Made by a program: the position numbers and the translations under genes. Positions 4,199 to 59,721 of a stretch of DNA of 64,000 nucleotides are shown here, piece after piece; the stretch's first letter is position 1, and each line of letters starts with the position of its first letter. The notes beneath the pieces were generated by a model. That model had not been told where the DNA came from, ran no database searches, and was given only the letters and a program-made list of their open reading frames with translations. The stretch covers positions 566 through 64,565 of the forward strand of contig JBDLUA010000001.1 of the NCBI GenBank assembly GCA_039805545.1. Direction: 5' to 3'. Source of the DNA: Candidatus Parcubacteria bacterium. Lineage in GTDB: Bacteria; Patescibacteriota; Minisyncoccia; Phycocordibacterales; JAACPR01.

Positions 4199-5587
4199 TT
4201 ATTTCTTCTCAACACTAAACCCAACTTCACTTGCAGTATCTTTTATGATGTATCCTGCTTTTTCAATTTCTTCTCGTAGGGCGTCCGCAAGTGCAAAGTC
4301 TCTATTATCTCGCGCGTCTTTTCTTCGCTGTGCAAGTTCAATAACTTGAGGAGGAATTTCTATTGTTTTTTCTTTTTTATCTAATTCAAGTTTAAGAACT
4401 TTATCAAAGTCTAAAATCGTAACTTTTTTATCTTCATCAGCAATTGAGTTGTCTTTTAATAAATCAAAAATAAGAGCAATTGCTTTTGAAGTGTTAAGAT
4501 CTTCGTTTATGTATGAAGTAAATTTTTCTTTGTAGGGGAGTGACACACTTCCTGGATCCTCGCCTCCGCGAGGATGACGTACTAAGAAGTCTTTTATTTT
4601 TTGTAATCCAATTTGTGCTGCTTGTACTGATTCAATAGTAAAGTTTGAAAGGGTAGAGTAGTGTGAAGTGTAAAGCCAATACTTGTATGCTGCAGGTGAA
4701 ATATTTTTTGAAATTAAATCTTCAAGATAGAGTGTATTACCAATAGACTTAGAAATCTTTTTTCCATCAATAGTGATGTGATTTACATGAAGCCAATAGT
4801 GTGCAAGAGGAGCATTATGTGCACATACTGACTGAGCAATTTCGTTTTGATGGTGAGTAGGAATATGATCAACTCCACCTGTATGAATATCAAATGTAGT
4901 TCCAAGATATTTGTTTGCCATTGCCGAACATTCAATATGCCACCCAGGAAATCCTACACCCCAAGGAGATTCCCATTCTTGCTGCCTTTTTTCTTTTGAA
5001 AATTTCCAAAGCGCAAAGTCTGTACTGTTTCTTTTTTCTGTATTTGCTTCAACTCGTGCACCTTCTTTGAGTCCTTCAATATCAATATGTCCAAGTTCAC
5101 CATATGCAGGAAATTTAGAAGTATCAAAGTATACACCATCTGACGTGATGTATGTGAATCCTTTTGTTTCAAGTTCTTTAATCAAATCAATTTGTTCTTG
5201 AATATGCTCTGATGCTTTTGGAAATTCAATTGTAGAGACATCAATATTGAGTGCCGTGAGAGCATCCATGAAGTCTTGTGTATATCTTTCTGTAATTACT
5301 TTTGCATCAAGGTGTTCTTTCTTTGCTTGTTCTTCAACCTTATCTGCACCTTCGTCGCTATCTGATACAAGATGTCCTACATCAGTAATATTAATTACTT
5401 GATGAACATTGTACCCATTATAGATGAGAGTATTTTTGATTAAATCAGCAAAGATATACGCCCTAAGATTTCCAATGTGAGGCTTACCGTATACTGTAGG
5501 TCCACAATTGTACATGCCAACAGTATTAGGGTTAATCGGTTTAAATTCTTCTATTTTTCCTGACAGAGTATTCTTAAAATAAATCAT
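4199..5587 (-). CDS. cysS: cysteinyl-tRNA synthetase carrying an in-frame palindromic repeat insertion
   Basis: HIGN (HIGH) and KISKS (KMSKS) motifs and the CGPTVYG N-terminus. The repeat at 4551-4586 encodes RHPRGGEDPGS in-frame. Confidence 0.9.
   Translation of the reverse strand: MIYFKNTLSGKIEEFKPINPNTVGMYNCGPTVYGKPHIGNLRAYIFADLIKNTLIYNGYNVHQVINITDVGHLVSDSDEGADKVEEQAKKEHLDAKVITERYTQDFMDALTALNIDVSTIEFPKASEHIQEQIDLIKELETKGFTYITSDGVYFDTSKFPAYGELGHIDIEGLKEGARVEANTEKRNSTDFALWKFSKEKRQQEWESPWGVGFPGWHIECSAMANKYLGTTFDIHTGGVDHIPTHHQNEIAQSVCAHNAPLAHYWLHVNHITIDGKKISKSIGNTLYLEDLISKNISPAAYKYWLYTSHYSTLSNFTIESVQAAQIGLQKIKDFLVRHPRGGEDPGSVSLPYKEKFTSYINEDLNTSKAIALIFDLLKDNSIADEDKKVTILDFDKVLKLELDKKEKTIEIPPQVIELAQRRKDARDNRDFALADALREEIEKAGYIIKDTASEVGFSVEKK
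4551..4586. repeat. palindromic repeat element (GGATCCTCGC-CTCC-GCGAGGATGAC family), in-frame inside cysS
   Basis: CCTGGATCCTCGCCTCCGCGAGGATGACGT recurs at 13969, 27971/28062, 32871/32960, 49494 and 52166. Confidence 0.8.
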
Positions 5588-6554: not shown

Positions 6555-7784
6555 TTGACTTTTTATACACAAATTGAGATACTGCTTGATATGAATTCAA
6601 AAATAAGAACACAACTTTTTGGTGGAATATTGCTTGCTATTGTACTTTCATTTGGTATGGGGTTTTATATTGGAAACGGCGGAATATCTTTTCGGTCTAC
6701 ACAAGCAAGTGAAGATGTAGACATGGCTCCTTTTTGGAAAACATGGAATATATTAAATGAAAAATTTGTTTCAGCATCTACTACTAAGCAAATTTCTAAT
6801 CAAGAAAAAGTATACGGAGCAATTAGCGGAATGGTCTCGTCACTCGGAGATCCATATACTGTATTCTTTACCCCAGAAGAAAAACAAAAATTTGATGAAT
6901 CAATCGAGGGTACCTTTGAGGGGGTAGGAATGGAAGTAGGAATTAGAGATAAAGTGCTTACAGTTGTTGCACCTCTCAAAAATTCTCCTGCAGAAAAGGC
7001 TGGAATTGAAAGTGGGGATATTATTGTAAAAATTGATGAAAAGGATTCTCTTAATATGAAAGTGGAAGAGGCAGTTTCTTTGATTCGTGGTGCAAAGGGT
7101 ACAATGGTAACTCTTACAATACTCAAAAAAGATGCAGAAAAACCTGTTGAAATAAAGGTAATGCGAGATAAGATTATTGTTCCTACCATCGAGACCGAAA
7201 TTATCAATACTACTTTTGTTATAAGACTATACAGTTTTGGAGCAACATCAGAATCAGAATTTAAGACCGCAATTGAACAATATCAAAAATCAGGCAAGAA
7301 GAGATTGATTATTGATTTAAGAGGGAATCCAGGTGGATATTTTGATTCAGCAGTTGATATTGCAAGTTGGTTCTTACCTGCAGGAAAGACTATTGTCACA
7401 GAGGACTTTGGTTCAAATATTACTCCAAAAATATTCAGAAGTAAGGGATATAATGTTTTTGATTTAAATAAAAATAAAATGGTTATCCTTATTGATGAAG
7501 GTTCTGCATCTGCCTCCGAAATCCTTGCTGGAGCATTGCAAGAACATGGAGTTGCAAAATTAGTAGGAACAAAATCTTTTGGAAAAGGATCAGTTCAAGA
7601 GTTGATAGATATCACAAAAGATACTGCTCTTAAAGTAACAATTGCACGATGGCTTACTCCAAATGGAAAATCTATTTCTGCGGGCGGCCTTGCGCCTGAT
7701 TATGAGGTTCAATTTGATGCGGATAAGTTTAAGAAACATAACGAAGACCTACAGTTGCAAAAAGCGCTTGAATTATTAAAATAA
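6555..7784 (+). CDS. ctpA: carboxy-terminal processing peptidase (S41 family, Tsp/CtpA-like)
   Basis: PDZ domain (GIESGDIIVKIDE) and S41 catalytic region (DLRGNPGGY, GSASASEILAGALQ). Confidence 0.85.
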   Translation: MTFYTQIEILLDMNSKIRTQLFGGILLAIVLSFGMGFYIGNGGISFRSTQASEDVDMAPFWKTWNILNEKFVSASTTKQISNQEKVYGAISGMVSSLGDPYTVFFTPEEKQKFDESIEGTFEGVGMEVGIRDKVLTVVAPLKNSPAEKAGIESGDIIVKIDEKDSLNMKVEEAVSLIRGAKGTMVTLTILKKDAEKPVEIKVMRDKIIVPTIETEIINTTFVIRLYSFGATSESEFKTAIEQYQKSGKKRLIIDLRGNPGGYFDSAVDIASWFLPAGKTIVTEDFGSNITPKIFRSKGYNVFDLNKNKMVILIDEGSASASEILAGALQEHGVAKLVGTKSFGKGSVQELIDITKDTALKVTIARWLTPNGKSISAGGLAPDYEVQFDADKFKKHNEDLQLQKALELLK

Positions 7785-8230: not shown

Positions 8231-8237
8231 ATAAAAC

Positions 8238-8276
8238 AAAAGCGGCGGACCCTTCGGGTCCGCCGCTTTTGTTTTT
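8238..8276. terminator. bidirectional intrinsic terminator between rplI and rpmA
   Basis: AAAAGCGGCGGACCCTTCGGGTCCGCCGCTTTTGTTTTT. Confidence 0.6.
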
Positions 8277-8278
8277 AA

Positions 8279-13226: not shown

Positions 13227-13904
13227 ATGAAATATATTAGAGAGCATATTGTATCAATACTAATTTTGGGAGTGCTTGCACTGTTATCTTTTGGAAGTTT
13301 TTTTATTGATTTAAATACTATTCGAGTAAGTATTGAATCTGCAGGAGTGTGGGCGCCAGTACTTTATATTCTAACAAAGGCTTCTACGGTTATATTTGCT
13401 CCACTTTCTGGAACACCTCTTTATGTTTTTTCTGTACCGCTGTTTGGGTTTTGGCATGGGGTCATGTATTCGTTTATTGGAGATTTTATCGGCGCTGTTG
13501 TTACATTCTATATCAGTAGATTTTTTGGTCGTCCGGTTGTTGAGTATCTTGCAGGAAAAAAGAATATGCCTCACATTGAAGATGCACTTGAATTGATGGC
13601 AACTCCAAAAGGTTTTGTAACAATGCGGATTGCCGCATTAAGTATGCCTGAGATAGCAAGTTATGCGGCAGGACTTACACCGATTAATTTCTTCTTTTTT
13701 ATCGTGGTGCACATGCTTGTAGATATTATTCCAATCTTTGTAATCTCAAGTCCTGGACTATTCTTTACTCAACATTTTCCTGCGTGGGCCGTAACTCTTG
13801 GTGTAGTGTCTGCTGGTGCAGTGACTGTGATAAGTATCTTGATATTTGTGGCAATGTTAAAGAAAGCTCATAAGAAACATTTGAAGAATAAGGCGGAAAA
13901 ATAA
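13227..13904 (+). CDS. DedA / TVP38-TMEM64 family membrane protein
   Basis: Multi-TM protein with a conserved SNARE-associated core (FAPLSGTPLYVFSVPLFGFWHG...FIGDFIGAVVTF). Confidence 0.75.
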   Translation: MKYIREHIVSILILGVLALLSFGSFFIDLNTIRVSIESAGVWAPVLYILTKASTVIFAPLSGTPLYVFSVPLFGFWHGVMYSFIGDFIGAVVTFYISRFFGRPVVEYLAGKKNMPHIEDALELMATPKGFVTMRIAALSMPEIASYAAGLTPINFFFFIVVHMLVDIIPIFVISSPGLFFTQHFPAWAVTLGVVSAGAVTVISILIFVAMLKKAHKKHLKNKAEK

Positions 13905-13911
13905 AAGACTT

Positions 13912-14001
13912 CTTAGCACGTCATCCTTAGCAAAAGGCAGGCCCTTCGGGCCTGCCTTTTGCAATCCTGGATCCTCGCCTTCGCGAGGATGACGTGCTAA
14001 G
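13912..14001. mobile_element. composite palindromic repeat element: inverted ends CTTAGCACGTCATCC / GGATGACGTGCTAAG enclosing a terminator-hairpin module and the core palindrome
   Basis: The left end is at 13912-13926, the internal UUCG-loop hairpin at 13930-13965 (near-identical to 1162-1190), and the right palindrome GGATCCTCGCCTTCGCGAGGATGACGTGCTAAG at 13969-14001. Confidence 0.7.
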
Positions 14002-14535: not shown

Positions 14536-14626
14536 TAATATACACTATCCATAAACTTTGTCAAGCATTTAAAAGTATTGCCTAATTATAGCAAGATTCC
14601 GGCTCAAGCCCGGGATGACAGAGAGA

Positions 14627-19909: not shown

Positions 19910-20428
19910 ATGAAAGAAACTGGAATTTCCGTTTTCATTCAAATCGGATTGCCGTACCTTTTGCTCATTAGTCTGGGTCCAATGTTTTTTCTTCTCCATC
20001 GCAAGATGAATGTGTGTGTTGAACGCTACATTATGAGGGCGATCAAGAAGAGATTTCATGTCCGGATACTAAAGCATCAACATCCGCGCAATCCGCGGTA
20101 TAAGCAATGTCATCGAGCTTTTGGGTTTGGACATGTGTGGTATATGCATGTTCGGCCCGGTCTCTTGGAAGTAAGTCTTCCCCAAACAATTTCGTATGAG
20201 TTTGAGGTCGAAAAGAGATTGAAAGTTCGTTGGCTTCAGGAGTGTGTTATGACTTCACTGCCCAGTGATCGTTATACTCTCAAAGCTTTGCCTCGTCAAA
20301 AGATGGTTGATATAAACTTTGAGGTGTTTGATAGGAAAAAGAAGTCGAGACTTGAAGTTCGAATTATACGCCTCCAAGATGACGTTCATCATCGGAAATA
20401 CCGCCTTGTCACAACTTGGCTTTCGTGA
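19910..20428 (+). CDS. hypothetical protein (compositionally distinct, R/H/K-rich)
   Basis: 172-aa ORF with its own GC hairpin terminator at 20429-20463. Confidence 0.3.
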   Translation: MKETGISVFIQIGLPYLLLISLGPMFFLLHRKMNVCVERYIMRAIKKRFHVRILKHQHPRNPRYKQCHRAFGFGHVWYMHVRPGLLEVSLPQTISYEFEVEKRLKVRWLQECVMTSLPSDRYTLKALPRQKMVDINFEVFDRKKKSRLEVRIIRLQDDVHHRKYRLVTTWLS

Positions 20429-20514
20429 ATCCTCCCCGTCACCACGGGGAGGATGTTCATTTTACTTTTAAGAAAAAAAGAGTAGTCTAAAATAAACTTT
20501 AATCAGATCTTCCT

Positions 20515-27967: not shown

Positions 27968-28090
27968 CACGTCATCCTCGCGGAGGTGAGGATCAAGGTA
28001 CGAAATAAGATATGTAAAGAAATGGTTTAGATTGCTTTTTACTATTTCTTACAGTGATCCTGGATCCCTGCCTACGCAGGGATGACATGC
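27968..28090. mobile_element. composite double-hairpin palindromic repeat (~125 bp) in the trpS 5' region
   Basis: GTCATCCTCGCGGAGGTGAGGATC at 27971-27994, then an AT-rich spacer, then GGATCCCTGCCTACGCAGGGATGAC at 28062-28086. It is the reverse complement of the copy at 32871-32994. Confidence 0.75.
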
Positions 28091-28119
28091 TGTATTGTCA
28101 CATTCTAGGCATGACTCAT

Positions 28120-28152
28120 ATTAAAAACTACCCACCCTCTTGTGAGGGTGGG
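28120..28152 (-). terminator. intrinsic terminator (minus strand) at the end of a GC-rich segment upstream of trpS
   Basis: CCCACCCTC-TTGTG-AGGGTGGG followed on the minus strand by TAGTTTTTAAT. Confidence 0.55.
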
Positions 28153-28167
28153 TTGTTTCTGGACAAA

Positions 28168-28317
28168 TCAATGTCGGGTCTTACCGCGCTTTCCGCGACG
28201 TCCTCCTTTGTGGAAGAAACGTGGTTTGTGGGTGCGAGTAAAACGCAAGTTTTCGGTAAGTGCGAGTGCCAGAAGAATTTCATGGCTCCAACGGTAGGTG
28301 CGAGGTGCTTCTTTCAT
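28168..28317 (-). CDS. candidate 49-aa highly basic small ORF inside the GC-rich segment (speculative)
   Basis: MKEAPRTYRWSHEILLALALTENLRFTRTHKPRFFHKGGRRGKRGKTRH. AGGA lies 13 nt upstream. It could equally be a non-coding structured RNA. Confidence 0.2.
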   Translation of the reverse strand: MKEAPRTYRWSHEILLALALTENLRFTRTHKPRFFHKGGRRGKRGKTRH

Positions 28318-28355
28318 ACCATTTTTAATCCTAACTCTCCCAAAAAATTTTGCAA

Positions 28356-28856
28356 CTAGTCTGAATGTGAATTTGATGCATAGATAAGTGCAAGTGGAAT
28401 AAGAATAAGAACATAGTATGGAATCTTATCTAGAATAAAAGCACTGAATGGAAAATTGATATTAATAATTTTATCTAATGGAAGAATTTTGTAATACGCG
28501 ATAAAGAGTGAAAAGATTGCAGAAAATGCAAGCATAATCGAATCTAGTATGTGTCGTCCTCCATATCCTCCTCCAAATGCAGTAATTGACCGTTTCATCA
28601 AGAATATAAGTATTGCATATACTACAAGAAATAATAAAACTTTTGCAGACGCCTCTGTTGCCTTAAAAGGAAGTGTTGAATATACAAATGTTGCAACATA
28701 AAAAGGAATAACGAATCGTGCAACACTTTTTTTACTCTTCTTGTATGCTACAAAAAAAGTAAAGATAAAAATTGCTAATAAAATAATGACATCTAATGTC
28801 AAAAAACCAAATTGAATCATGGGTATATTATACTCCGAGATCTTGCAACTCTTCAA
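28356..28856 (-). CDS. hypothetical multi-pass membrane protein
   Basis: 166-aa ORF with 4-5 predicted TM helices. Confidence 0.4.
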
Positions 28857-29703
28857 GCAACTTCTTCGCTTTCTTGTCTAACTTCTTTGGAATATCAATC
28901 GATACAACTACATAGAGATCTCCTCGTGTATGTTTATTGTATTGCACACCTTCTCCTTTTATTCTAAATATTTCTCCAGGTCTTGTTGCTTCTGGAATTT
29001 TTATTTCTATTTCTCTTTCAACACCTTGAATTTTCTTTTTTGTTCCAAGAATTAATTCTGTTGGTTTGAGTTTGAGTTCTGTTTCAAGATGATATCCATT
29101 CTTTACAAGTGTTGGGTGCTTCTCTACATGAACAATTACAAGCAAGTCTCCTGGGTTTCCATCTTGAATAGGTTCTCCCTTACCTGGAACTTTGAGAATT
29201 TGTCTATCTTCAATTCCTGCTGGAATAGAAATTTCAACTTCATGTTTTTGTGAATCTCTTTTTTTATAAAATGAAATCTTTTTTGTAACTCCAAATACAG
29301 ATTCTTTAAATGAAATAGTTACATCTACTTGAATGTTTTGACCTTTTGGTGTTCGCCTCATTCCACCACCAAAGAATTGTGAAAAAATATCTCCAAGATC
29401 AAAGTCTGCATGTTGCCCTCCAAACCCTCCGGTGAACTGTGAAAAATCAAATCCTTCAAACCCTCCAAATCCACCCTGCCCTCCTTGTCCATTAAAGTTT
29501 GCAGAACCAAATGTATCGTATTGCTTTCGCTTCTCTTCATTTCCTAGTATCGAATATGCTTCGTTTATTTCTTTAAACTTTTTTTCATCTCCTGTTTTTT
29601 TATCAGGGTGATATTGTTGTGCAAGCTTTCGAAATGCTTTCTTAATCTCGTCTTGTGACGCGCTCTTCTCTACACCTAGAATTTTGTAATAGTCATGTGC
29701 CAT
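28828..29703 (-). CDS. dnaJ: DnaJ-like co-chaperone (J-domain plus G/F region plus C-terminal domain, no zinc finger; CbpA-like)
   Basis: J-domain [32 protein letters not shown] and a G/F-rich linker. The CxxCxGxG repeats are absent. Confidence 0.8.
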
Positions 29704-30329: not shown

Positions 30330-32225
30330 TTATTTTTGTTCTTCCTCTTCCGGTTTCACTTCTTCAGCATCCTTTACTTCCGGTTCTCCTTCTGTCTTAG
30401 GTTGCTCGGCGTTAGCTTGTTGCCCTGCTTGATACATCTTAGTAGAAACTTCGTTTAATACTTTTGAAAGTTCTACGGTTGCAGTATCAATGTCAGATGC
30501 ATTGTCAGTTGTGATCTTGCTTCGAAGATTTGTGATTTTATCATTGATTGATTTTTGATCATCTTCTGAAATCTTATCTTTGTTTTCATTGATAAGTTTT
30601 TCTGAAGCGTAGATAGTTTGTTCTGCAGTGTTTTTGTGTTCAACAAGTTTTCGTTTTGCTTCATCCTCGGCAGCATGCATTTCTGCATCCTTTTGCATCT
30701 TTTCAATTTCTTCTTTTGAAAGTCCTGATGACGCTTCGATTCGAATTGATTGCTCCTTGTTTGTTGCTTTATCTTTTGCAGATACCTTGAGAATTCCGTT
30801 TGCATCAATGTCAAATGTTACTTCAACTTGAGGAATACCTCGTGGTGCAGGTGGAATTCCATCAAGAACAAATCGTCCAAGAGACTTGTTATCAGTTGCT
30901 TGCGCTCGTTCTCCTTGTACAATGTGAATTTCTACTTGAGTTTGATTATCTGCTGCGGTTGAGAATACTTGTGATCGTGAAGCTGGAATAGTAGTGTTCT
31001 TTTCGATAAGTTTTGTTGCGATTCCCCCCATTGTTTCGATTCCAAGTGAAAGTGGAATCACATCAAGAAGAAGTACGTCCTTTACATCTCCTCCAAGAAT
31101 TCCTCCTTGAATAGCAGCTCCAAGCGCTACTACTTCATCTGGGTTAATTGATTTGTTTGGCTCTTTACCAAAGAATTCTTTTACCTTTGCTTGGATAAGT
31201 GGCATTCGAGTTTGTCCACCTACGAGAATAATTTCTTGAATGTCTTCTTTCTTAAATGGAGAAGCTTCGAGTGCTCGTTTTGTAATTTCAATTGATCGAT
31301 CAATGAATTCCATTGAAAGTTCTTCAAGCTTTGCTCGTGAAAGTTTTTGAACAAGGTGCTCTGGACCATTTGGACCTGATGCAATAAACGGAATGTTGAT
31401 TTCTGTTTCGTTTGCAGTTGAGAGTTCAATCTTTGCTTTTTCTGATTCTTCGTAGAGTCTTTGAAGCGCAAGTGGATCCTTTGCAAGGTCAATTGCTGTT
31501 TGCTTTTTGAATTCATCAATAATCCATTGAATTACTTTTTGATCAATGTCTTTTCCTCCCATGTGTGAGTCTCCATCTGTAGACTTAACTTCAATCACAT
31601 CATCCCCTACTTCAAGTACAGATACATCAAATGTTCCTCCTCCGAAGTCGAATACAACAATCTTTTCTTCTTTCTTTTTTCCAAACCCATATGCAAGAGC
31701 CGCAGCTGTAGGTTCGTTTATGATTCGTTTTACATCAAGACCTGCAATCTTTCCAGCATCCTTAGTTGCTTGTCGTTGTGCATCGTTAAAGTATGCAGGT
31801 ACAGTAACAATGGCTTCGGTGATGGTTTCACCTGTTCGTGCCTCTGCATCTGCTTTTAATTTAGAAAGAATCATTGCAGAAATTTCTTCTGGTCGATAAT
31901 CTTTTCCAGACATTTCCACAACTACTCCTCCATTGTCAGATTTTTTAATTTGATATGGAACAGTTTTTTTATCTTTTTCTACTGACGCATCATCAAATGA
32001 GTGACCAATAAATCGCTTAATACCAAATACAGTATTTTGAGGATTAGTCACAGATTGTCGTTTTGCTGTTTGTCCAACAAGTCGTTCGTTGTTTTTTGAT
32101 ATTGCAACGATAGATGGTGTTGTTCGTGCACCTTCTGCGTTCTCAATAATCTTTGGCTCAGAGGCTTCGATGATAGCCATTGCTGAGTTTGTTGTCCCTA
32201 AATCGATTCCTAGTATTTTTGCCAT
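30330..32225 (-). CDS. dnaK: molecular chaperone DnaK (Hsp70)
   Basis: [30 protein letters not shown] and full Hsp70 architecture. Confidence 0.95.
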
Positions 32226-32269: not shown

Positions 32270-32833
32270 TTATTTTTCGTATTTGTAAACTTTCACTGAT
32301 GCTGCTCGGATAATTCGTGAAGGAGTTCGATATCCTTTCAAAATTACCTGTGCTACCGTATGATCAAGCGTTTCATCATCAGTGGACACCTCCTCTATCG
32401 CCTCGTGTTCTTCAGGCGAAAATGCTTGATTAAGAGGGTTTATCTCTGTCACCCCGTACTCTTCAAGTACTCGTTTGAATTGCTGGTGAACATATTCAAA
32501 CCCAGTAAGCCATTTTTTGAATGAGTCATCAAAGTTTCCCGCAAGAGCCATGTCAAAACTATCAAGTATTGGTAAAAGAGATTCAACAATTGAAATGGTA
32601 GAACTATCTTTTGCTTGAGTAAAGATGGATTCGTTTTGTTTTTTGTAATTAATAAAATCAGCTTGCGCTCTTTGCCAACCAGAAAGATACTCTTCTTTTT
32701 CACTTTGACATTTGTCTAGTTTTTCTTTAAGAGTTTTTATCTTTTTTTGATAGTCTTGACCGACATGAGAGTCTTCACTAAATTCTTCTTCAAGTATGAT
32801 GTCATCAGTTGTGTCTTGATGTTTTTTTGTCAT
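32270..32833 (-). CDS. grpE: nucleotide exchange factor GrpE
   Basis: GrpE C-terminal beta domain and coiled-coil N-terminus. It lies immediately upstream of dnaK. Confidence 0.9.
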
Positions 32834-32870
32834 GTTGAAATTAAGTTAGTGTGCTGAGTTGTCATTCCTG

Positions 32871-32994
32871 CGTAGGCAGGAATCCAGGATCACTGTAAGA
32901 AGTAGTAAGATAAAAATCTAAACCATTTCTTTATATTTCTTGTTTCGTACCTGGATCCCCGCCTTCGCGGGGATGACGTGCTAATAAAACAGGG
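32871..32994. mobile_element. composite double-hairpin palindromic repeat (~125 bp), inverted copy of 27968-28090, between rpsI and grpE
   Basis: GTCATTCCTGCGTAGGCAGGAATCCAGG ... CCTGGATCCCCGCCTTCGCGGGGATGACGTGCTAA, with a conserved internal spacer (AAACCATTTCTTTA...). Confidence 0.75.
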
Positions 32995-38248: not shown

Positions 38249-39382
38249 TTAAATTAATGCCTCTAATGTTAAATCTAACTCAATTTCTCCTATCGGAGTC
38301 TTGTAGGTAATTATATCTTTTAACAAAGAGATATCAAAATTAATTATTCTATGGTTTTTGAGGTTCATCTGAGCATTATTTTGCAATGTTTTTGAAAGAA
38401 TCTCGGTAAAAAAGCTCACAACCTTTGGATTTGAGAGTACTAAAAACTTGTGTGGGACATGAGTTCCAAAATATTGAAGAGTTTGAATTACAGAATTCCC
38501 CCATGATTGCATTACCGTATCTAGTTGTACTTGAGATTGTGGAGATTTAATAAGAACTTCTTTTTGATAGAGTAAATCATACTCATATGACTTAATATTT
38601 GTTTGTAGTGCCCGAAGAAAGTCGTGAATACCAATTGGGAATGTTGCAAATTGCACAAGTGCATCATCTTGAATAATTCCAACCTCAGTAATCTCCCCAC
38701 TTACATACACAAAGACAAGATTATCCTCCTTAATCATAAACCGTGTTGTGTTCTCAACAATAGTCATAGGACTTGTTTTGCAATGAGCAGTTTTAGATTC
38801 TGGAAAATACTGTTTAAGAATATCTTTGAGCATTGAGTATGTGTCTTTTGCTATAAAACTTGAATACACATCAATTTGAACATGAGAACATCGAGTATTT
38901 TCAATGTGTGTAATTGTGTATCCGTTTGTTTGAATCTTTGTAATACATTTTTCGAGTACATAGAGCTTATCATCGGCAGGAATCTTTTTAAGTTCTTGTT
39001 CTATAAAATCATCATTAAGTACAATTTCATTTTCAAAATTTAAAGAATCAATTCGTGATGTGAACCAAGGAGTGTGGAGAATAAACACTATAGTGCACGG
39101 GTTATTTTGAATTATTTGTTTGATAGAGGTGTGGTTTTTTTCAAAAGCAGCTTTAAGCTCTTTGATATAAGTGTTGGTATATAGTTTTGGATCTTGAGAG
39201 TTTTGTAAAAAAAGAATATTGCGTTCAACAAACAACACTTCCCTCTTATTGTTTGGAAGAACCTTAATTAATTGAAAATCAATAGAAGAACTTTTTAAAG
39301 AAATGTGTAATGAGTATGTAAAAGTATTCTTAGGTTTTAAGAAAGGCATAGGAGTATTATAGCATAGAACATTTATAAACAA
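38249..39382 (-). CDS. hypothetical protein
   Basis: 377-aa ORF with no motifs recognised. Confidence 0.4.
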   Translation of the reverse strand: MFINVLCYNTPMPFLKPKNTFTYSLHISLKSSSIDFQLIKVLPNNKREVLFVERNILFLQNSQDPKLYTNTYIKELKAAFEKNHTSIKQIIQNNPCTIVFILHTPWFTSRIDSLNFENEIVLNDDFIEQELKKIPADDKLYVLEKCITKIQTNGYTITHIENTRCSHVQIDVYSSFIAKDTYSMLKDILKQYFPESKTAHCKTSPMTIVENTTRFMIKEDNLVFVYVSGEITEVGIIQDDALVQFATFPIGIHDFLRALQTNIKSYEYDLLYQKEVLIKSPQSQVQLDTVMQSWGNSVIQTLQYFGTHVPHKFLVLSNPKVVSFFTEILSKTLQNNAQMNLKNHRIINFDISLLKDIITYKTPIGEIELDLTLEALI

Positions 39383-39384
39383 TT

Positions 39385-39879
39385 CTATTTCTTTACCTTT
39401 TTTGCCATATCGTTTGCAATTTCAGTACAAACCCCAATATTTTTCACACCCTCATTCATTAATTCAAAAACCAATCTATAGAAAGAAGGGAGTTGTTTTT
39501 TTATTTCGCTATTTATTTTCTTTCTGTCTTCTTTTAATAATTTATGAAAAATCTTTTTTCTTAGTAAATTAAATTGTTTTAGTTCATCCAGTAATTGTTT
39601 GTTTTTGTTATATCGTTCAAGTCTTACAATTAGTTCACCCAAAGGAGTTTCCTTATCTTTTTTATCTTCAAATTTAAGATTATATTGCTTAAGTGCTAGA
39701 GATACTGCAATTTCTTGACACTCAATTGCATATTTTATTTTGTCTTCTACTTCAAGTGCATAATATAAAAAAGCTTCCACATAAAATTCATTCAATAACA
39801 GCGTTTTCAATCTCTCTCCGAATGGGTGTAGTTCTTTATTTTTACTATATATTGCAAAAATACTCAAAGTGTTATCCAT
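39385..39879 (-). CDS. hypothetical protein
   Basis: 164-aa, K/E-rich, predicted helical. Confidence 0.4.
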   Translation of the reverse strand: MDNTLSIFAIYSKNKELHPFGERLKTLLLNEFYVEAFLYYALEVEDKIKYAIECQEIAVSLALKQYNLKFEDKKDKETPLGELIVRLERYNKNKQLLDELKQFNLLRKKIFHKLLKEDRKKINSEIKKQLPSFYRLVFELMNEGVKNIGVCTEIANDMAKKVKK

Positions 39880-39884
39880 AAATC

Positions 39885-41657
39885 CTACCCCAACACCCCC
39901 TTAATCCTCCTAACCCCCGCACTCGAACTTTCTTCTTTCAGAATTTTAAAATGTCCGAGGGTTCCTGTGTGTGTCACATGAGGACCCATACAAATCTCAG
40001 TACTAAATGCGCCAGTTGGTGAACCGATTTGATATACAGATACTTTGTCTGAGTATTTGTCAGTGAAGAGTCCGATAGCATTCATCTTCTTTGCTTCGTC
40101 ATAGGTTGTATCGTATCGAGTTACAGGCAAATCCTGTACAATAATCTCGTTTACTTTATCCTCAACTTCTTTAACTTCCTCTGGTGTAAGTGCACGAGTA
40201 AATGAGAAGTCGAATCGCATTCGCTCTGTATTGATATTACTTCCCTTTTGTTCAACAGTTGTTCCGAACATATTTCGAAGTACGGTGTGAAGAATGTGTG
40301 TTGTGGTGTGATACTTGGTTTCTATTTCTGAGTTTCCTGCAAGTCCACCCTTAAACATACCTGCTGAGGCAGTCTTGGATGCTTGTTTGTGTTGCTCGAT
40401 TTCTTTATTGATTTCGTCTTTGTTGTATGAAATCTTTTTTTCATCTAATAATTCGTATGTGAGTTCAAGTGGAAACCCGTATGTCGTATAGAGATTAAAA
40501 ATATCTTTTGAAGAAAATTCTCCGGCAATCATTTTTTCAAAATTCTTCATTCCTGACGAGAGAGTCTTTTGGAATTTTTCTATTTCTTTGATTAATTCTG
40601 TTTGAATGAAGTCCTTTGCGGATGTGAGATTGTATACTGATTCATAAATTTCAAAAATCTTTGTTGTTGCCTCTTGTACATTATCTACAGACAATCCAAG
40701 TACATCAGCAAATCGATATAATCGTCGAATCAATCTTCGAAGTACATATCCTTGTGCAGTATTAGATGGTGCAACTTGTTCACTCAGTATAAGCACCGAT
40801 GTTCGAAGGTGATCAGATACAATTCGAAGTGCTCGAACATCTTGATTCTTCGCATGTTCTTTAAGATATGTGTATACAGGAGAAAATAAATCAGTATCAA
40901 ACACACAATCAACTCCTTGTGATGCCATTACCACTCGCTCAAGTCCTCCTCCAAAGTCTACATTTTGTTGTGCGAGATTCTCTAGGCCTTGTGCTGTTTT
41001 GTTATGAAGCATAAACACCGTGTTCCCTACTTCTACAAGTTTTTGATCTGCATCTGCTTGTTCAAATTGTTCGAGTGTAAGGTCACCAAGGTCTTCGTTT
41101 GAAACATTGTAAAAGATTTCACTATCTGGACCACATGGACCAATCTCTCCTGTTGACCACCAGTTTCCAGGAAGAAAAAGAATTCTCTCCTTAGGAATTC
41201 CGAGCTCCATCCAATATGATGCAGTCTCTTCATCCTTTGGAACAAGATCATTTCCAGAAAAACATGTGATGTATGCTTTGTTAATATCAAAATTAAATCC
41301 TTTGTCGGTGAAATATAATTCGTAACTTGTTTGTACACCAGCCCGCTTGATTGCACCAAATTCTTGTGCACTCTCTGCTCCAAGATACCAGTATCCAATC
41401 ATTTCAAAAAAAGTATCGTGCGTTTTGTCTCCAATCTCATCAATATCTTGTGTTCGAATACATTTTTGAATGTTTGTGATTTTGTTTCCAAGCGGATGCT
41501 TTTCTCCTTTGATATATGGAACAAGTGGTTGTACTCCTGCAGTTGTGAAAAGTACTGATGGATCATTAGTTGGAACAAGTGATGCAGAGTCAACAAGAGC
41601 GAATCCCTTGTTTTGCATAAAAGTCTTTATATTGTCTCGTATTTGAGTGTGTTTCAT
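39885..41657 (-). CDS. alaS: alanyl-tRNA synthetase (short form lacking the C-terminal domain)
   Basis: AlaRS catalytic N-terminus (SASLVPTNDPSVLFTTAGVQP) and editing-domain HxxxH motif (HTTTHILH). It is 590 aa versus about 870 typical. Confidence 0.85.
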   Translation of the reverse strand: MKHTQIRDNIKTFMQNKGFALVDSASLVPTNDPSVLFTTAGVQPLVPYIKGEKHPLGNKITNIQKCIRTQDIDEIGDKTHDTFFEMIGYWYLGAESAQEFGAIKRAGVQTSYELYFTDKGFNFDINKAYITCFSGNDLVPKDEETASYWMELGIPKERILFLPGNWWSTGEIGPCGPDSEIFYNVSNEDLGDLTLEQFEQADADQKLVEVGNTVFMLHNKTAQGLENLAQQNVDFGGGLERVVMASQGVDCVFDTDLFSPVYTYLKEHAKNQDVRALRIVSDHLRTSVLILSEQVAPSNTAQGYVLRRLIRRLYRFADVLGLSVDNVQEATTKIFEIYESVYNLTSAKDFIQTELIKEIEKFQKTLSSGMKNFEKMIAGEFSSKDIFNLYTTYGFPLELTYELLDEKKISYNKDEINKEIEQHKQASKTASAGMFKGGLAGNSEIETKYHTTTHILHTVLRNMFGTTVEQKGSNINTERMRFDFSFTRALTPEEVKEVEDKVNEIIVQDLPVTRYDTTYDEAKKMNAIGLFTDKYSDKVSVYQIGSPTGAFSTEICMGPHVTHTGTLGHFKILKEESSSAGVRRIKGVLG

Positions 41658-42986: not shown

Positions 42987-43028
42987 ATGGAGAATTATAG
43001 CACAAAGACCGAAGAGAATGTGAAATAG

Positions 43029-43056
43029 TTGACAGATATTTTAAATAGTGTATAAT
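43029..43056 (+). promoter_or_regulatory. consensus sigma70-type promoter driving candidate sRNA
   Basis: TTGACA (43029-43034), 16 nt, TATAAT (43051-43056). Confidence 0.55.
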
Positions 43057-43062
43057 GCATTC

Positions 43063-43280
43063 CATACATGTCCTTCCAAGACCGAGGAAGAGGGCTGACG
43101 GATGGTTAGTCCATCTGAAATACTCTTCGTGAGATTGCGTAAGCTTTTCACAAAAGAGAGCATGTGAGGCAGATGAGAGCAGTCACCGACTCTGCCAGCA
43201 GGGAGGCTTTCGCAAGGATTGGTCATCTCCCTCAAATCCCGCCGCGCACCAGTAGGCCACTGGTGCGCGGTATTTTCTTT
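43063..43280 (+). ncRNA. candidate structured small RNA (~220 nt, class undetermined)
   Basis: GC-rich island between a perfect promoter and an intrinsic terminator (CGCGCACCAG-TAGGCC-ACTGGTGCGCG plus a U-tract at 43243-43280). The 5' GAGGGCUGAC can pair with 3' GUCAUCUCCCUC (long-range closing helix). It also contains a GC-GUAA-GC GNRA hairpin. Overlapping minus ORFs are not protein-like. Confidence 0.45.
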
Positions 43281-44363
43281 TTAATACAGAATTTTCTCCA
43301 CCACTCCACCTCCCACGCAGTGCTCACCTTGGTATAAAACCGCAGACTGTCCTTGTGCAATAAATGTAGGGAGTTCCTTATCAAATACAATTCGTGTTGA
43401 TTTATCTTCGAATACAAGTGTTCCTTTGAGGGGCTTTTGTCTATATCTAAATTGAACTTGTATATCTGTTTTATTTTCTACTAATGTATGAAAAATCGTG
43501 TCGGCAAGTTCTACTTCTTTTATAAATGGTGCTACTGAACCCACAATAAGTTTATTATTTTTAATGTCCTTATCGATTACAAACAATACTTCATCATTTG
43601 TATTCTTGTATTCTGGTGAAATAGAAAATCCATGTCTCTCACCTATTGTGTATAACTCAACTCCTTCATGAGTTCCAATCTCTGTTCCATTAAGCGTGTG
43701 CACTGTTCCTGGTTTTGTGGTGATAAGTTTTTTGAGAAAAGTTTTCATGTCAACAGGTCCGATAAAGCAAAGTCCTTGTGAATCTTTTTTTTCTGCGGTA
43801 AACAAACCATGTGCTTCGGCAATCTTTCGTACTTCACTTTTTTCTAAATGTCCTATTGGAAACAAGATGTGTTCAAATTTTTCTGTAGAAACATTCCAAA
43901 TAAAATAACTTTGATCTTTGTTTGTATCATGTCCTCGATAGAGCTGTGAGGCTTTATTTTGAGCGTAGTGCCCTGTTGCGACTGCATCGAAGCCATTTCT
44001 CATTGCAAAGTCATAGATAAAGCCAAACTTAATATGTGTATTACACATTACATCGGGATTTGGTGTTCGACCCGCTTGATATTCACTCATCATATAGTCA
44101 GCAACATGCTGTTTGTATTCAACTTCGAGATTTAAAAAATGAAATGGAATCTCGAGCTTGGCACATACTCGCATTGCGTCTTTCATTTCATCTCGCCATG
44201 TACATTCAACAAAGTCAGGTTGCCACACCTTTGCAAAGACACCTTCTACTTGATAGCTGGCTTTTTTGAGTAATATCGCAGCAACAGAAGAATCAACCCC
44301 GCCCGAGATACCGACGAGAACTTTTTTATTCTTGTGTAAAGTATTTATCTTTGTTTGCTTCAT
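43281..44363 (-). CDS. mnmA: tRNA-specific 2-thiouridylase MnmA
   Basis: PP-loop SGGVDSSVAA and conserved MnmA catalytic Cys region. Confidence 0.9.
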   Translation of the reverse strand: MKQTKINTLHKNKKVLVGISGGVDSSVAAILLKKASYQVEGVFAKVWQPDFVECTWRDEMKDAMRVCAKLEIPFHFLNLEVEYKQHVADYMMSEYQAGRTPNPDVMCNTHIKFGFIYDFAMRNGFDAVATGHYAQNKASQLYRGHDTNKDQSYFIWNVSTEKFEHILFPIGHLEKSEVRKIAEAHGLFTAEKKDSQGLCFIGPVDMKTFLKKLITTKPGTVHTLNGTEIGTHEGVELYTIGERHGFSISPEYKNTNDEVLFVIDKDIKNNKLIVGSVAPFIKEVELADTIFHTLVENKTDIQVQFRYRQKPLKGTLVFEDKSTRIVFDKELPTFIAQGQSAVLYQGEHCVGGGVVEKILY

Positions 44364-47704: not shown

Positions 47705-50278
47705 TTACCCTTTAATAACGAAACTCACCAATTTTTGAGGAACATAAATTTCTTTAACAATCTCTTTACCTTCTATCCATCGAAGTACTTCAGGATTTGA
47801 TTTTGCTTGAGCAAGAATTTCTTCTTTTGAAAGATTTGGATCAACTTCAAGTACTGTTCGCGTCTTTCCGTTCACTTGAACGGCAATTTTGAGCTTCTGA
47901 TCGGCAAGTATAGATACATCAGGGGTACTAAATAATTGATTGTAAATCAAATCACTCTCTCCTATTGATGACCAGATCTCTTGTGCAAGGTGTGGCGCAT
48001 ATGTTTCAAATACTACTAAGAATTTTTTGAATGTATCTTTTGAAAATTCTGTTTTTTCCAAAGAATTAATACATACCATTAATTTAGAAAGGCCTGTATT
48101 AAATTTAAGTTGTTCAAAATCAGTTGTGATTTGTGAAAGAAGTGTGTTTATTGCAACAAGTGCCTCTTTTGAATCTTGCGTGGAAACTTTTTCTACAAGT
48201 GAATACACTCGTTCAAAGAATCTTCGAATTCCAACTACACCGTTTGGATCCCATGGATAATTTCCTGCTTCTCCATATGGCCCCATAAATGCAAGATATG
48301 CACGCACCACATCAGCGCCAACTCGTTCCACTACTTCATCAGGATTAATTACATTTCCTTTTGACTTACTCATCTTATCTCCATCTGTCCCAAGAATAAG
48401 TCCTCTGTTATTTCTCTTATTAAAAGGTTCTGATTGCGGAACAATTCCAAGGTCATACATTACTTTGTATACAAATCGTGCATACAATAAGTGTCGTGTA
48501 GTATGTTCACTTCCTCCAGAATAAAAATCAATCGGAAGCCATGTCTTCTTTGCTTGTTCTGAGGCAATTTCTGTATCATTCTTAGGATCAATGTATCGTG
48601 TGTAATACCAACTTGAATCAACAAATGTATCAAGAGTATCTGTCTCTCGCTCTGCTTTGCTGCCACATTGAGGACAAGATGCCTCTACCCACTCATGATT
48701 GTGTGCAAGTGGAGACTTACCGTCATCTCGCATTTCGATCTTATCCATATCAGGAAGAACAACAGGAAGCTGATCCTCAGGTACAGGAATAGTTCCACAA
48801 GATGTACAATGAATCATCGGAATAGGACAACCCCAATATCGTTGCCGTGATACTGACCAATCTTGAAGTTTGTATGTTGTTGTCTTTTCTCCGTATTTTG
48901 ATGTGATAGCATCTTTGGCTTGTTCTGATGTAAGTCCGTTGAATTCTCCGGAGTTAAAGATTAGAGCATTATCGCCTACAAAAGGTTTCTTTCCATTTAG
49001 ATAATCTTCATTGAGTTTTGTTAGTTCTTCAGTAGAATCAAAATCTTTGTTAAAAGAACCATCAACCCTAATAACATTTGGCCGTAAAACAACTTTAATC
49101 TCTAAATTATATTTTTGAGCAAATTCAAAATCTCTATCATCATGTGCAGGTACTGCCATTACACACCCTGTTCCGTATGTTGCGATTACATAATCAGAAA
49201 TAAACACAGGAATTTCTCTTCCTGTCGCTGGATGAAGTGCTTTGATTCCTTTAAGTTCAACCCCTGTCTTATCTTTGTTTGTTTGTCTATCAAGATCAGT
49301 TTTTTTATTTGTTTGATCAATATAGGTTTGAACTTCTGACCAATTTGAAATAGATGGTTTTAATGTTTGAACAAGATCGTGTTCTGGCGCAACAACAACA
49401 TAAGTAACACCCATAAATGTATCTGGTCGTGTAGTGAAGACTTTTATTTGAAGGTTACCTTGTGCATTAGTGAAGTCTGCAAGCGGAGTTTGGTGATCCT
49501 GGATCCTCGCCTCCGCGAGGATGACGTCATTGGGAGCAGGGATGACACCACCCGTTCCTTTAATATCGAATGTAAAAAAAGTTCCATGGCTTCGTCCAAT
49601 CCAATTCTTTTGTGCTTCTTTGATGTGATGGGGCCAATTAAGAGAATCAAGATCATCGATAAGTCTATCTGCATACTTTGTAATCTCGATATTCCATTGT
49701 TTCATTTCTTTTTGTTCAACGGCGCTACTGCATCGTTCACATACTCCACCTTCGAGTTGTTCATTTGCAAGAACAGTTTTACAAGAAGGACACCAATTCA
49801 CATGAGTTTGCTCGTGCTTTACTAATCCTTTTTTATAAAATTGAAGAAACAACCATTGCGTCCATTTATAATATTCTGGATCAGATGTAACAACCTTGGT
49901 ATCCCAGTCAATCATTGTTCCCATACTCTTTACCTGTTCAATCATCTTTTCGATATTCGAATAGGTCCAAGTCTTAGGATTAAGGCCTCGCTTGATAGCG
50001 GCGTTCTCAGCAGGAAGACCAAAAGAATCAAAACCAAATGGAAATAGCACATCTTTACCAAGATGGTGCATATATCGCGCAAAAATATCAGTCACGGCAA
50101 AGGCATACCAATGCCCTACATGAAGATCTCCTGAAGGATACGGAAATTCTACAAGGAGATATGATTTATCTTTTGGATTTGGATTTGTTTTGAAAAGGTT
50201 TTTTGATTCCCATTCTTTTTGCCATTTAGATTCGATTTCTTTATGATTGTAGTCTTTCATATGTAGTGATGATACCAC
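47705..50278 (-). CDS. leuS: leucyl-tRNA synthetase carrying an in-frame palindromic repeat insertion
   Basis: HVGHWYAF (HIGH) and KMSKSKGN motifs and the CP1 editing domain. The repeat at 49494-49530 encodes NDVILAEARIQD in-frame. Confidence 0.95.
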   Translation of the reverse strand: MVSSLHMKDYNHKEIESKWQKEWESKNLFKTNPNPKDKSYLLVEFPYPSGDLHVGHWYAFAVTDIFARYMHHLGKDVLFPFGFDSFGLPAENAAIKRGLNPKTWTYSNIEKMIEQVKSMGTMIDWDTKVVTSDPEYYKWTQWLFLQFYKKGLVKHEQTHVNWCPSCKTVLANEQLEGGVCERCSSAVEQKEMKQWNIEITKYADRLIDDLDSLNWPHHIKEAQKNWIGRSHGTFFTFDIKGTGGVIPAPNDVILAEARIQDHQTPLADFTNAQGNLQIKVFTTRPDTFMGVTYVVVAPEHDLVQTLKPSISNWSEVQTYIDQTNKKTDLDRQTNKDKTGVELKGIKALHPATGREIPVFISDYVIATYGTGCVMAVPAHDDRDFEFAQKYNLEIKVVLRPNVIRVDGSFNKDFDSTEELTKLNEDYLNGKKPFVGDNALIFNSGEFNGLTSEQAKDAITSKYGEKTTTYKLQDWSVSRQRYWGCPIPMIHCTSCGTIPVPEDQLPVVLPDMDKIEMRDDGKSPLAHNHEWVEASCPQCGSKAERETDTLDTFVDSSWYYTRYIDPKNDTEIASEQAKKTWLPIDFYSGGSEHTTRHLLYARFVYKVMYDLGIVPQSEPFNKRNNRGLILGTDGDKMSKSKGNVINPDEVVERVGADVVRAYLAFMGPYGEAGNYPWDPNGVVGIRRFFERVYSLVEKVSTQDSKEALVAINTLLSQITTDFEQLKFNTGLSKLMVCINSLEKTEFSKDTFKKFLVVFETYAPHLAQEIWSSIGESDLIYNQLFSTPDVSILADQKLKIAVQVNGKTRTVLEVDPNLSKEEILAQAKSNPEVLRWIEGKEIVKEIYVPQKLVSFVIKG
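49494..49530. repeat. palindromic repeat element, in-frame inside leuS
   Basis: TGATCCTGGATCCTCGCCTCCGCGAGGATGACGTCAT. It is a perfect match to the cysS copy over the core. Confidence 0.8.
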
Positions 50279-51881: not shown

Positions 51882-52165
51882 AGTGGTTAGAGTGTACAAT
51901 AAAATGGATAAAAATGAAATGGCGGCGGGCCGTACGGCCCGCCCCCAAGTGGAATTAGACGTGTGGGAATTTCCCAAAGAAATCGGTCTCCCTCAATGGA
52001 TGTTTTTCTTCATCTTGAGTTGAAGCAGAGCGAAGTCTTCGCTCAAATTCCTGATTCAGAATATTTCTATCAAAGGGTGTAGTGAATTTACCCTGTGAGA
52101 GACCAAGAATCTCAAACCAGTTATTATCTGGTTCAGAGGAGCTATGCATAAACTGATACTAACAT

Positions 52166-52240
52166 GAGATCCTCGCCTCCGCGAGGATGACGAAAAATAT
52201 AGTCCCCCTCGTCTTCACGAGGGTCCTTGTTTTTCGTCAC
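52166..52240. mobile_element. variant palindromic repeat element (core palindrome plus a second CCCTCG/CGAGGG hairpin, flanked by short inverted repeats GACGAAAAA / TTTTTCGTC)
   Basis: GATCCTCGCCTCCGCGAGGATGACG at 52166-52192. TCCCCCTCGTCTTCACGAGGGTCC at 52203-52226. Confidence 0.65.
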
Positions 52241-53187: not shown

Positions 53188-53240
53188 GTAACATCATTAT
53201 TATATCAGTACATTTTTTATATATGAAAATATTTGTACAC

Positions 53241-53279
53241 AAAAGTGGCGGACTCTTCGGGTCCGCCACTTTATGTTTT
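53241..53279 (-). terminator. intrinsic terminator with a UUCG-loop hairpin
   Basis: AAAAGTGGCGGACTCTTCGGGTCCGCCACTTT. Confidence 0.55.
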
Positions 53280-53293
53280 AAACTAAACTATAA

Positions 53294-59636: not shown

Positions 59637-59721
59637 TTGCATCGGGAAACTGATGTAGGGGTCCTCGGACTCTCCTAGTGGTGGGCTTTTTGTTTACTAC
59701 TAGGACAATTGATTTCATTTT

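Follow-up and report, generated by a model that had tools for sequence, protein, structure and literature searches.

The Rickettsia palindromic element (RPE) family RPE-1, reported by Ogata et al. in 2000 and 2002, is said to consist of units of ~100-150 bp that encode a module of 30-50 amino acids (aa). A second literature deals with short repetitive extragenic palindromes (REPs), among which Di Nocera, De Gregorio & Rocco (2013, BMC Genomics 14:522, PMC3733652) recognise the CGTC-1 family by its CGTC or TGTC (also CCTC) tag, a stem of 8 bp whose first pairs are A-T and T-A, a loop of 4 nt and a CCA tail. The same survey equated CGTC-1 with the dRS3 repeat of Neisseria, and CGTC-1 and CGTC-4 with RPE-6 and RPE-4 of R. 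conorii, whose RPEs end in CGTC; it found no transposase associated with CGTC REPs, it already listed REPs within the tRNA synthetase genes of three proteobacteria, and its hosts were Proteobacteria, Chlorobi, Bacteroidetes, Spirochaetes and Thermotogae, not Patescibacteria/candidate phyla radiation (CPR) bacteria (PMC3733652). More recently the Neisseria Transformation Sequence (NTS), CGTCATTCCCGCGMAVGCGGGAATCYRG, was described as an extension of the dRS3 repeat ATTCCC-N8-GGGAAT (Chenal et al. 2025, Nat Commun 16:2388, PMC11893778) and was generalised as the Ssn-related motif (SRM), a hairpin that in other bacteria is the substrate of Ssn, a small GIY-YIG nuclease which binds it as single-stranded DNA (ssDNA) and cleaves immediately 5' of it (PMC11893778). 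Neisseria NTS clusters bracket genes in an 'NTS-gene-NTS' layout, and in N. meningitidis 2% of NTS lie inside genes (PMC11893778). Here we describe a hairpin repeat in a Parcubacteria genome, of which a stretch of 64 kb (the window) was analysed, with copies inside the cysteinyl- and leucyl-tRNA synthetase genes cysS and leuS. Very probably the element is a CGTC-1 REP (alias dRS3/NTS/SRM) that has recently expanded in this Parcubacteria lineage and whose coding copies are tolerated in synthetase loops; it is a known family in a new host phylum, not a new kind of element.

An earlier note on this DNA had placed a 36-bp palindrome, CCTGGATCCTCGCCTCCGCGAGGATGACGTACTAAG, at 4551-4586 (+) of the window, within an uninterrupted open reading frame (ORF) for cysteinyl-tRNA synthetase (CysRS). 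That placement is borne out: the ORF 4199..5587 (-) encloses the whole 36-bp string, matches the Pfam family tRNA-synt_1e and solved CysRS structures in the PDB (~1e-86), and shares 100% identity with a protein from a Candidatus Parcubacteria metagenome-assembled genome (MAG). The translation around the element contains ..FLVRHPRGGEDPGSVS.. and ..KIKDFLVRHPRGGEDPGSVS... The size needs revision, in that the 36-bp string is present but the family unit is 29 nt, from CGTC to CCAGG (4551-4579), the additional TACTAAG being found in 3-4 copies only.

4199..5587, minus strand: cysS, cysteinyl-tRNA synthetase, 462 aa, uninterrupted
4537..4593, minus strand: cysS block without counterpart in element-free orthologues, 57 nt, comprising the element and 14 nt on either side
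4551..4579, minus strand: probable CGTC-1 REP/SRM copy in cysS, 5'-CGTC ATCCTCGC GGAG GCGAGGAT CCAGG-3', read as RHPRGGEDPG, residues 337-346

The note had also proposed a lineage-specific insertion of ~11 aa, which can be judged against orthologues. The element-free CysRS orthologues nearest to the window protein share 87-90% of its amino acids (88.6% nucleotide identity at locus L001 and 82.6% at L002), and alignment with these two loci gives QKIISFIGQIKEEGSIDTTYKEKF for the empty site and QKIKDFLVRHPRGGEDPGSVSLPYKEKF for the window. The element is thus absent from close orthologues, but ~57 nt (4537-4593) stand in place of ~45 nt, so that the window gene is longer by a net 12 nt (4 aa), and the change is a replacement with a small net gain rather than a clean insertion of 36 bp or ~11 aa. 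Element-type peptides occur at the same CysRS site in the orthologues P0005 (RHPRGGGDPG), P0038 (ARHSREGGNPG), P0010, P0014 (a double one) and P0030, and the locus of P0038, L245, has the same cysS block with an eroding stem. Placement in a surface loop, another suggestion of the note, agrees with the AlphaFold2 model of CysRS (mean pLDDT 89.3), in which R337-G346 forms the loop between helices 318-337 and 350-361; this loop, where local pLDDT is lower (79-84), precedes the anticodon-binding helices.

The core had further been reported at five other loci, all of them intergenic. Five loci do carry it (at 13.9, 28.0, 32.9, 49.5 and 52.2 kb, two of the five holding two inverted copies each), but the 49.5-kb copy (49498-49526) lies in-frame within the leucyl-tRNA synthetase (LeuRS) ORF 47705..50278 (-), which has 857 codons and bears the HVGH and KMSKS motifs. 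The leuS frame, which differs from that of cysS, reads the element as ..NDVILAEARIQDHQ...

47705..50278, minus strand: leuS, leucyl-tRNA synthetase, probable start ATG 50260, 851 aa
49450..49568, minus strand: leuS block missing from L003, ~120 nt, made up of a half copy (49536-49547), the full copy and a 48-nt tail, encoding GTGGVIPAPNDVILAEARIQDHQTPLADFTNAQGNL
49498..49526, minus strand: copy in-frame in leuS, core identical to the cysS copy, read as VILAEARIQ

The nearest LeuRS orthologue, P0121 at locus L003, is 95% identical in protein and 96-97% identical in DNA over 12 kb of collinear sequence, and its leuS site reads FPIKDSEEKIKVF as against FDIKGTGGVIPAPNDVILAEARIQDHQTPLADFTNAQGNLQIKVF in the window, corresponding to 24 nt versus the ~120 nt of 49450-49568. 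Because the empty form is common to many distant orthologues, we take it to be ancestral. Three relatives of 75-83% identity (P0124, P0126 and P0136) have the same block architecture at the same site, and P0125 and P0128 have a solo hairpin (GVIPAEAGIQ) there. The copies at L243 and L244 have the stems ATTCCTGC/GCAGGAAT and ATTCCCGC/GTGGGAAT, which differ from the window stem by compensatory changes. Recent horizontal transfer of the leuS block from lineages like those of L243 and L244 was considered and is unsupported, because the identity of the block (0.82) is no higher than that of its flanks (0.71-0.85). In the AlphaFold model of LeuRS (mean pLDDT 84.9) the insert lies between strands 223-234 and 270-276 and contains residues 241-261, the only segment below 50; in alignment with the T. 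thermophilus enzyme (1H3N) it substitutes for the EGKE turn directly before the TTRPDT editing motif.

A separate feature of many Parcubacteria LeuRS orthologues is a NUDIX domain (PF00293) inside the synthetase, present in P0122-P0128, P0131, P0133, P0136 and others (~940-985 aa) and in the leuS genes at L243 1194-4121 and L244 2544-5459; the window LeuRS and P0121 are without it.

An identical 25-nt core thus encodes RHPRGGEDP in CysRS and VILAEARIQ in LeuRS. Since the same nucleotides are read in two frames in two proteins, the conserved entity is the DNA and not the peptide. It follows that there is no common peptide, which counts against an adaptive, lineage-specific addition to the two enzymes (for example an interaction surface) for which the DNA repeat was merely the source. 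The inserts are kept in intact essential genes at junctions of functional interest, one ahead of the CysRS anticodon-binding domain and the other leading into the LeuRS editing domain, and related inserts persist in several lineages, as such an addition would have it; but it is the DNA hairpin and not the amino acids that is conserved between copies, the inserts are low-confidence loops in the models, and the nearest relatives lack them, so that we hold an adaptive peptide to be very unlikely. The proposal that the sequence is native to cysS and resembles the repeat by chance, or that an assembly artefact joined repeat reads, is effectively refuted. The loop is variable in length in all CysRS, those of E. 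coli and Borrelia being of similar size, and MAG assemblies can be chimeric at repeats; yet 29-36 nt are identical to other loci (0 expected), the reading frames are intact, and the element recurs at these sites in assemblies obtained independently from other samples (P0005, P0038/L245, L243 and L244).

In the orientation of both host genes the unit reads 5'-CGTC, ATCCTCGC, GGAG, GCGAGGAT, CCAGG-3', and the element as ssDNA is 5'-TTAGTACGTCATCCTCGCGGAGGCGAGGATCCAGG-3'. For counting copies in the window we used a detector consisting of GTC, an 8-bp stem beginning with AT, and a following C. It returned 8 copies, compared with 0.375 in shuffles, or ~1 per 8 kb, and the pattern ATCCTCGC-N4-GCGAGGAT with at most 2 mismatches returned 6 matches, compared with 0.01 expected. 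The core therefore does recur, in 8 copies where 0.01-0.4 would be expected. Two copies are coding (cysS and leuS) and 6 intergenic. The tag directly 5' of the stem is CGTC in six of the eight and TGTC in the other two; the stem has 8 bp, with its first two pairs, A-T then T-A, invariant; the loop has 4 nt in every copy (GGAG, GAAG or GTAG); and the tail is CCAGG in 6/8, with CAAGG and CTCAT as variants. As ssDNA the hairpins have predicted energies of ~-8.7 to -9.7 kcal/mol (z -2.5 to -4.4). The stems occur as CCTCGC/GCGAGG, CCCTGC/GCAGGG, CCCCGC/GCGGGG and TCCTGC/GCAGGA, so that across the eight copies all 64 of 64 cells are paired and both sides have changed in three of the eight pairs; none of 500 shuffles attains this covariation score, and sliding the 3' arm abolishes the pairing. 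Tag and tail are conserved yet unpaired. The unit is free of stops in five of six frames. No tRNA and no Rfam family overlaps any of the window copies.

Tag, stem, loop and tail, together with multi-copy, dispersed and mainly intergenic occurrence and inverted dimers, agree in every respect with the published description of CGTC-1. Compared with the Neisseria NTS consensus the copies show 2-7 mismatches, which are for the most part paired changes in the stem; the cysS copy, with 5 mismatches, falls outside the literal SRM pattern, HGTCWYN(0-2)YYVSBRHN(0-5)WNVSBRGN(0-2)RNCYNB. When one genome of each species was scanned for CCTGGATCC-N12-GGATGACGT, at least 119 loci were found, and ~100 of the 122 matches listed are perfect hairpins of the same design; the taxa among the listed matches include Alpha-, Beta-, Gamma- and Deltaproteobacteria, Magnetococcales, Bdellovibrionales, Bacteroidia, Verrucomicrobiia, Dehalococcoidales, Acidobacteria and others. 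A metagenome scan with the window lineage's own stem found at least 120 loci, on contigs of 31-71% GC. We found no report of intragenic REPs in the CPR in the literature, and nothing relevant there on the peptide read-outs of the element (VIPAKAGIQ, WIPAFAGMT and others).

The comparison with RPEs made in the earlier note, that of a selfish palindrome in a housekeeping gene, is upheld by the two reading frames, the absence from close orthologues, the loop positions and the CGTC-1 features; both ORFs are intact, element-free orthologues exist, and like RPEs the copies lie in-frame at surface positions of functional proteins. Because RPE-4 and RPE-6 are CGTC REPs (PMC3733652), the comparison holds at the level of the superfamily, for which CGTC-REP, dRS3, NTS and SRM are more precise names than RPE. 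With RPE-4/RPE-6 the window element shares short CGTC hairpins, in-frame in housekeeping genes, single or as dimers, adding ~10-30 residues; it differs in phylum and lifestyle, and the equivalence is taken from PMC3733652 rather than from sequence comparison. RPE-1 likewise is a selfish palindrome in-frame at the surface of essential proteins and read in more than one frame, but the unit here is 29 nt (10 aa), and the 120-nt leuS block is not itself a long palindrome. The CGTC-1 REPs of the 2013 survey have the same tag, stem, loop and tail, are dispersed, lie near gene 3' ends, are often found as inverted pairs and occasionally lie inside ORFs, including those of tRNA synthetases; their stems are CCCCGC or CCCGGC where the dominant stem in the window is CCTCGC/GCGAGG, and the window stands apart in its high coding share (2/8) and in the recurrence of the same sites in orthologues. 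With NTS/SRM the element has in common the tag, hairpin geometry and tail, the predicted ssDNA hairpin, and copies set around grpE-dnaK-dnaJ as NTS clusters are set around genes; it differs in that an ssn gene was not found in the window or its relatives, that intragenic copies are 2% of the NTS in N. meningitidis, and that two of the eight window copies fit the literal SRM pattern. GTAG REPs and REPINs with RAYT transposases (E. coli, Pseudomonas) resemble the element in being short, GC-rich hairpins, in having a tag of four unpaired nucleotides, in forming inverted dimers and in their partner enzyme, which acts on ssDNA hairpins, but the tag here is CGTC/TGTC and not GTAG, no Y1 transposase is associated, and the only known partner enzyme is a GIY-YIG nuclease.

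The intergenic copies and related sequences of the window are as follows.

13897..13927, plus strand: partial head fragment AAAAATAAAAGACTTCTTAGCACGTCATCCT, 97% identical to cysS 4571-4601; not among the eight copies
13967..13995, minus strand: intergenic copy, loop GAAG, downstream of a VTT-domain gene; strict SRM pattern match
14595..14620, minus strand: degenerate family member, on the plus strand GATTCCGG CTCAAGC CCGGGATGACA, TGTC tag, just 3' of the M23 peptidase gene; recognised by eye, outside the eight
20424..20454, plus strand: 11-bp hairpin GAATCCTCCCCG TCAC CACGGGGAGGATG at the 3' end of ORF 19910..20428, without CGTC tag
27968..28090, no strand assigned: two-hairpin module 1, copies 27970-27998 (+) and 28059-28087 (-, TGTC tag), tags outward, ~60 nt apart
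32860..32980, no strand assigned: two-hairpin module 2, copies 32860-32888 (+, TGTC tag) and 32950-32978 (-, 2 mismatches to the Neisseria NTS)
52164..52192, minus strand: intergenic copy, stem and loop as in cysS/leuS, variant tail CTCAT, upstream of a YceG-like gene

The hairpin at 20424-20454 is possibly a distant relative, or else a simple terminator. The fragment at 13897-13927 opposes the 13967 copy, with a terminator-like hairpin (13928-13962) between them and the tags pointing outward. We observed that it has 31 nt in common with cysS 4571-4601 (97%), of which 15 nt (AAAAATAAAAGACTT, KIKDF in cysS) extend past the repeat tag; this could reflect either a longer 5' extension in a subfamily or a copy that moved along with cysS flank. 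A shared target motif, AAATAAAAG(A/T)CTTC, was considered and rejected: although it adjoins both coding copies, in cysS its position is upstream of the element and in leuS downstream of the block, and in leuS it is native, conserved coding sequence (KIKVF).

Module 1 is flanked by trpS on one side and by the chaperone operon, at its dnaJ end, on the other, and module 2 by grpE and rpsI, so that together they bracket grpE (32270-32833), dnaK (30330-32225) and dnaJ (28828-29703). These ~123-bp modules are inverted duplicates, 88-94% complementary. Such an architecture invites the alternative that the units are the ends of a conventional MITE (miniature inverted-repeat transposable element) moved by a classical transposase, in which case the modules would be the complete element and the solo hairpins its remnants. 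In its favour, modules 1 and 2 (27968-28090 and 32860-32980) are inverted copies of one another, 88-94% identical, bounded on both sides by a hairpin unit whose tag faces outward, and the 13.9-kb locus is also arranged with tags outward; we nevertheless consider a MITE improbable, given that there is no target-site duplication at the cysS or leuS junctions, no transposase near any window copy, and no trace of the modules' internal ~60 nt at other loci, and that CGTC REPs had no associated transposase in the 2013 survey (PMC3733652).

The bracketing of grpE-dnaK-dnaJ bears also on the question of whether the hairpins are selected cis elements, acting as Ssn or recombination barriers that protect particular genes against incoming DNA, or as RNA or DNA hairpins that tune the transcription, mRNA stability or translation of synthetase and chaperone genes. 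The two inverted modules flank these genes exactly, as do NTS clusters in Neisseria (PMC11893778); the stems of leuS orthologues stay paired by compensatory change across genomes of ~80% identity; and coding copies are found again at the same sites in orthologues and favour class I aminoacyl-tRNA synthetases (aaRS), with an alanyl-tRNA synthetase (AlaRS) control of 0/120. Against this, close relatives are without any copy, including leuS at 97% identity, the cysS copy is eroding in L245, the modules show no consistent orientation towards the gene downstream of them, searches of the window and L001-L003 gave no Ssn gene, and conversion from other genomic copies can also yield compensatory stems. 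On balance a selected cis function seems unlikely to us, if less so than a MITE. An operator of the CIRCE/HrcA type, considered on account of a TTAGCAC flank and the dnaK operon, was discarded, there being no CIRCE-like site with at most 3 mismatches in the window. Three relatives, L001, L002 and L003 (~40 kb, largely syntenic with the window), have 0 copies against the 8 in 64 kb, from which we conclude that the expansion of the repeat is lineage-specific.

The concentration of coding copies in class I synthetases was surveyed among listed matches at low-GC (<45%) loci, where long open frames are meaningful. Copies well inside recognisable proteins were found in methionyl-tRNA synthetase (MetRS; L124, just before the anticodon domain), glutamyl-tRNA synthetase (GluRS; L146, an inverted dimer at the catalytic/anticodon junction), MetRS again (L189) and a SpoU methylase (L165), the remaining coding candidates at these loci being at ORF ends or false positives. 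Class I synthetases thus make up three of the four independent coding cases (P ~6e-5 if they occupy 2.5% of coding DNA, a rough and post hoc estimate), and the cysS and leuS cases of the window add to this bias. As a class II control, AlaRS has an element-type peptide in 0 of the 120 closest orthologues, and the 32 closest have no internal insertion (589-606 aa, sd 3.2, compared with sd 8.3 for CysRS). REPs in synthetases as such have precedent, unlike the strength of the bias and the recurrence of sites. The sites in question are the CysRS loop before the anticodon-binding domain and the LeuRS turn entering the editing domain, with MetRS and GluRS added in other low-GC genomes; the stem variants are genome-specific, and filled and empty alleles occur side by side between genomes of 97% identity. 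One might speculate that Parcubacteria hairpins repeatedly take the same codon-level sites in class I aaRS genes by site-directed insertion or replacement (homing-like or by conversion), possibly without Ssn; this we think doubtful, though were it true, these alleles would be the first natural before/after pairs for working out how CGTC REPs move.

A number of observations weigh against the reading of the element as a mobile CGTC-1 REP carried as a passenger. Ssn-type GIY-YIG genes adjoin the repeat at six listed loci (L018, L055, L064, L082, L178 and L233), but searches with phmmer and with a hidden Markov model of the four Ssn homologues beside SRMs at L018, L055, L064 and L082 found no Ssn/GIY-YIG homologue (cd10448-type) in six-frame ORFs of the 64-kb window, L001-L003 or the low-GC metagenome loci, the best E-value in the window being 25; none of the small ORFs beside window copies is GIY-YIG. 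With no Ssn homologue in the visible 64 kb, the partner enzyme is unproven for this lineage, and an involvement of Ssn is inferred. The literal SRM pattern is matched by two of the eight copies (13967 and 32951). Neither coding site is a clean insertion, in that ~14-24 nt of flank have changed as well and the junctions show no visible target-site duplication; this accords better with recombination or repair than with simple transposition. More distant relatives have filled leuS and cysS alleles while the nearest relatives are empty, a patchy pattern whose history requires repeated gain, loss or allele exchange. Finally, orthologous coding copies have stems that differ by compensatory changes, which indicates that the hairpin is maintained and not merely tolerated, and which leaves room for a function in cis.

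We still favour the CGTC-1 REP. The element would act as DNA, its unpaired CGTC tag, 8-bp stem, 4-nt loop and CCA tail forming a hairpin when single-stranded. It may spread through an ssDNA intermediate on which an Ssn-like enzyme, with its gene elsewhere in the genome, would act, or alternatively by recombination or gene conversion between copies; the altered flanks, lack of duplications, patchy alleles and genome-specific stems would fit spread and homogenisation by ssDNA recombination or repair better than classical cut-and-paste. Most copies lie in intergenic sequence, often as inverted pairs, and two have landed in the class I synthetase genes cysS and leuS. We suggest that the coding copies persist because the element is stop-free in five of six frames, is short, and contributes Gly, Pro and charged residues to surface loops. 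Most likely the enzymes tolerate it as a passenger, and the peptide is presumably neutral in function.

If correct, this identification extends the CGTC-REP/NTS/SRM superfamily to the CPR (Parcubacteria), a group outside the two papers that define the family, and joins three literatures that have followed the same motif under different names: RPE, dRS3/CGTC-REP and NTS/Ssn. It also supplies comparative material in the form of filled and empty leuS alleles at 97% identity, compensatory stems in orthologous coding copies, and a class I synthetase bias. Allele pairs of this kind are what tests of models of spread need, Ssn being a nuclease and not a proven mobilising enzyme. For annotation, the motif explains odd, low-confidence loops of 10-30 aa and spurious small ORFs (of the VIPAKAGIQ, WIPAFAGMT or RHSREGGNP type) in metagenome proteins.

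Other features were observed in the window. The segment 14290-14560, between a 65-aa ORF and the M23 peptidase gene, is GC-rich (47-60%) non-coding sequence in a genome of 35% GC and has a fold z of -6.45; no Rfam family (even at E < 0.01), tRNA or tmRNA was found in it, and we regard it as a possible structured RNA not yet described. In L002 the syntenic spacer (1726-2201) is likewise non-coding. Between module 1 and ORF 28356..28856 lie ~260 nt of non-coding sequence (28095-28355) with a strong hairpin, CCCACCCTC TTGT GAGGGTGGG, a fold z of -3.4 on the minus strand and no Rfam match. GC-rich hairpins of a second family, AAAAGGCGGGCCC TTCG GGGCCCGCCTTTT, flanked by A and T runs, occur at gene ends at 1158-1200, 8236-8278, 13928-13962 and 53239-53281; these are probably bidirectional intrinsic terminators, one of them lying between the repeat units at 13.9 kb. 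The Rfam model of Rickettsia sRNA47 matches 7482-7605 (-) with 61.7 bits (gathering score 60), antisense in the S41 peptidase ORF 6555..7784; this is most likely coding sequence that is conserved, not an sRNA, and it has no connection with the hairpin repeat. Accessory segments differ between genomes of 96-97% identity, with window segments 39364-39891 and 43008-43282 standing opposite L003 12771-13915 and 8612-9653; where the window carries either a short spacer or an ORF of 164 aa, L003 carries a TIR-domain gene together with two small ORFs, and these small variable islands lie beside an Mrr-like gene. At 59552-59673 (+) there is a full-length match to the Rfam LOOT RNA (RF03000), with 72.4 bits against a gathering score of 46.4.

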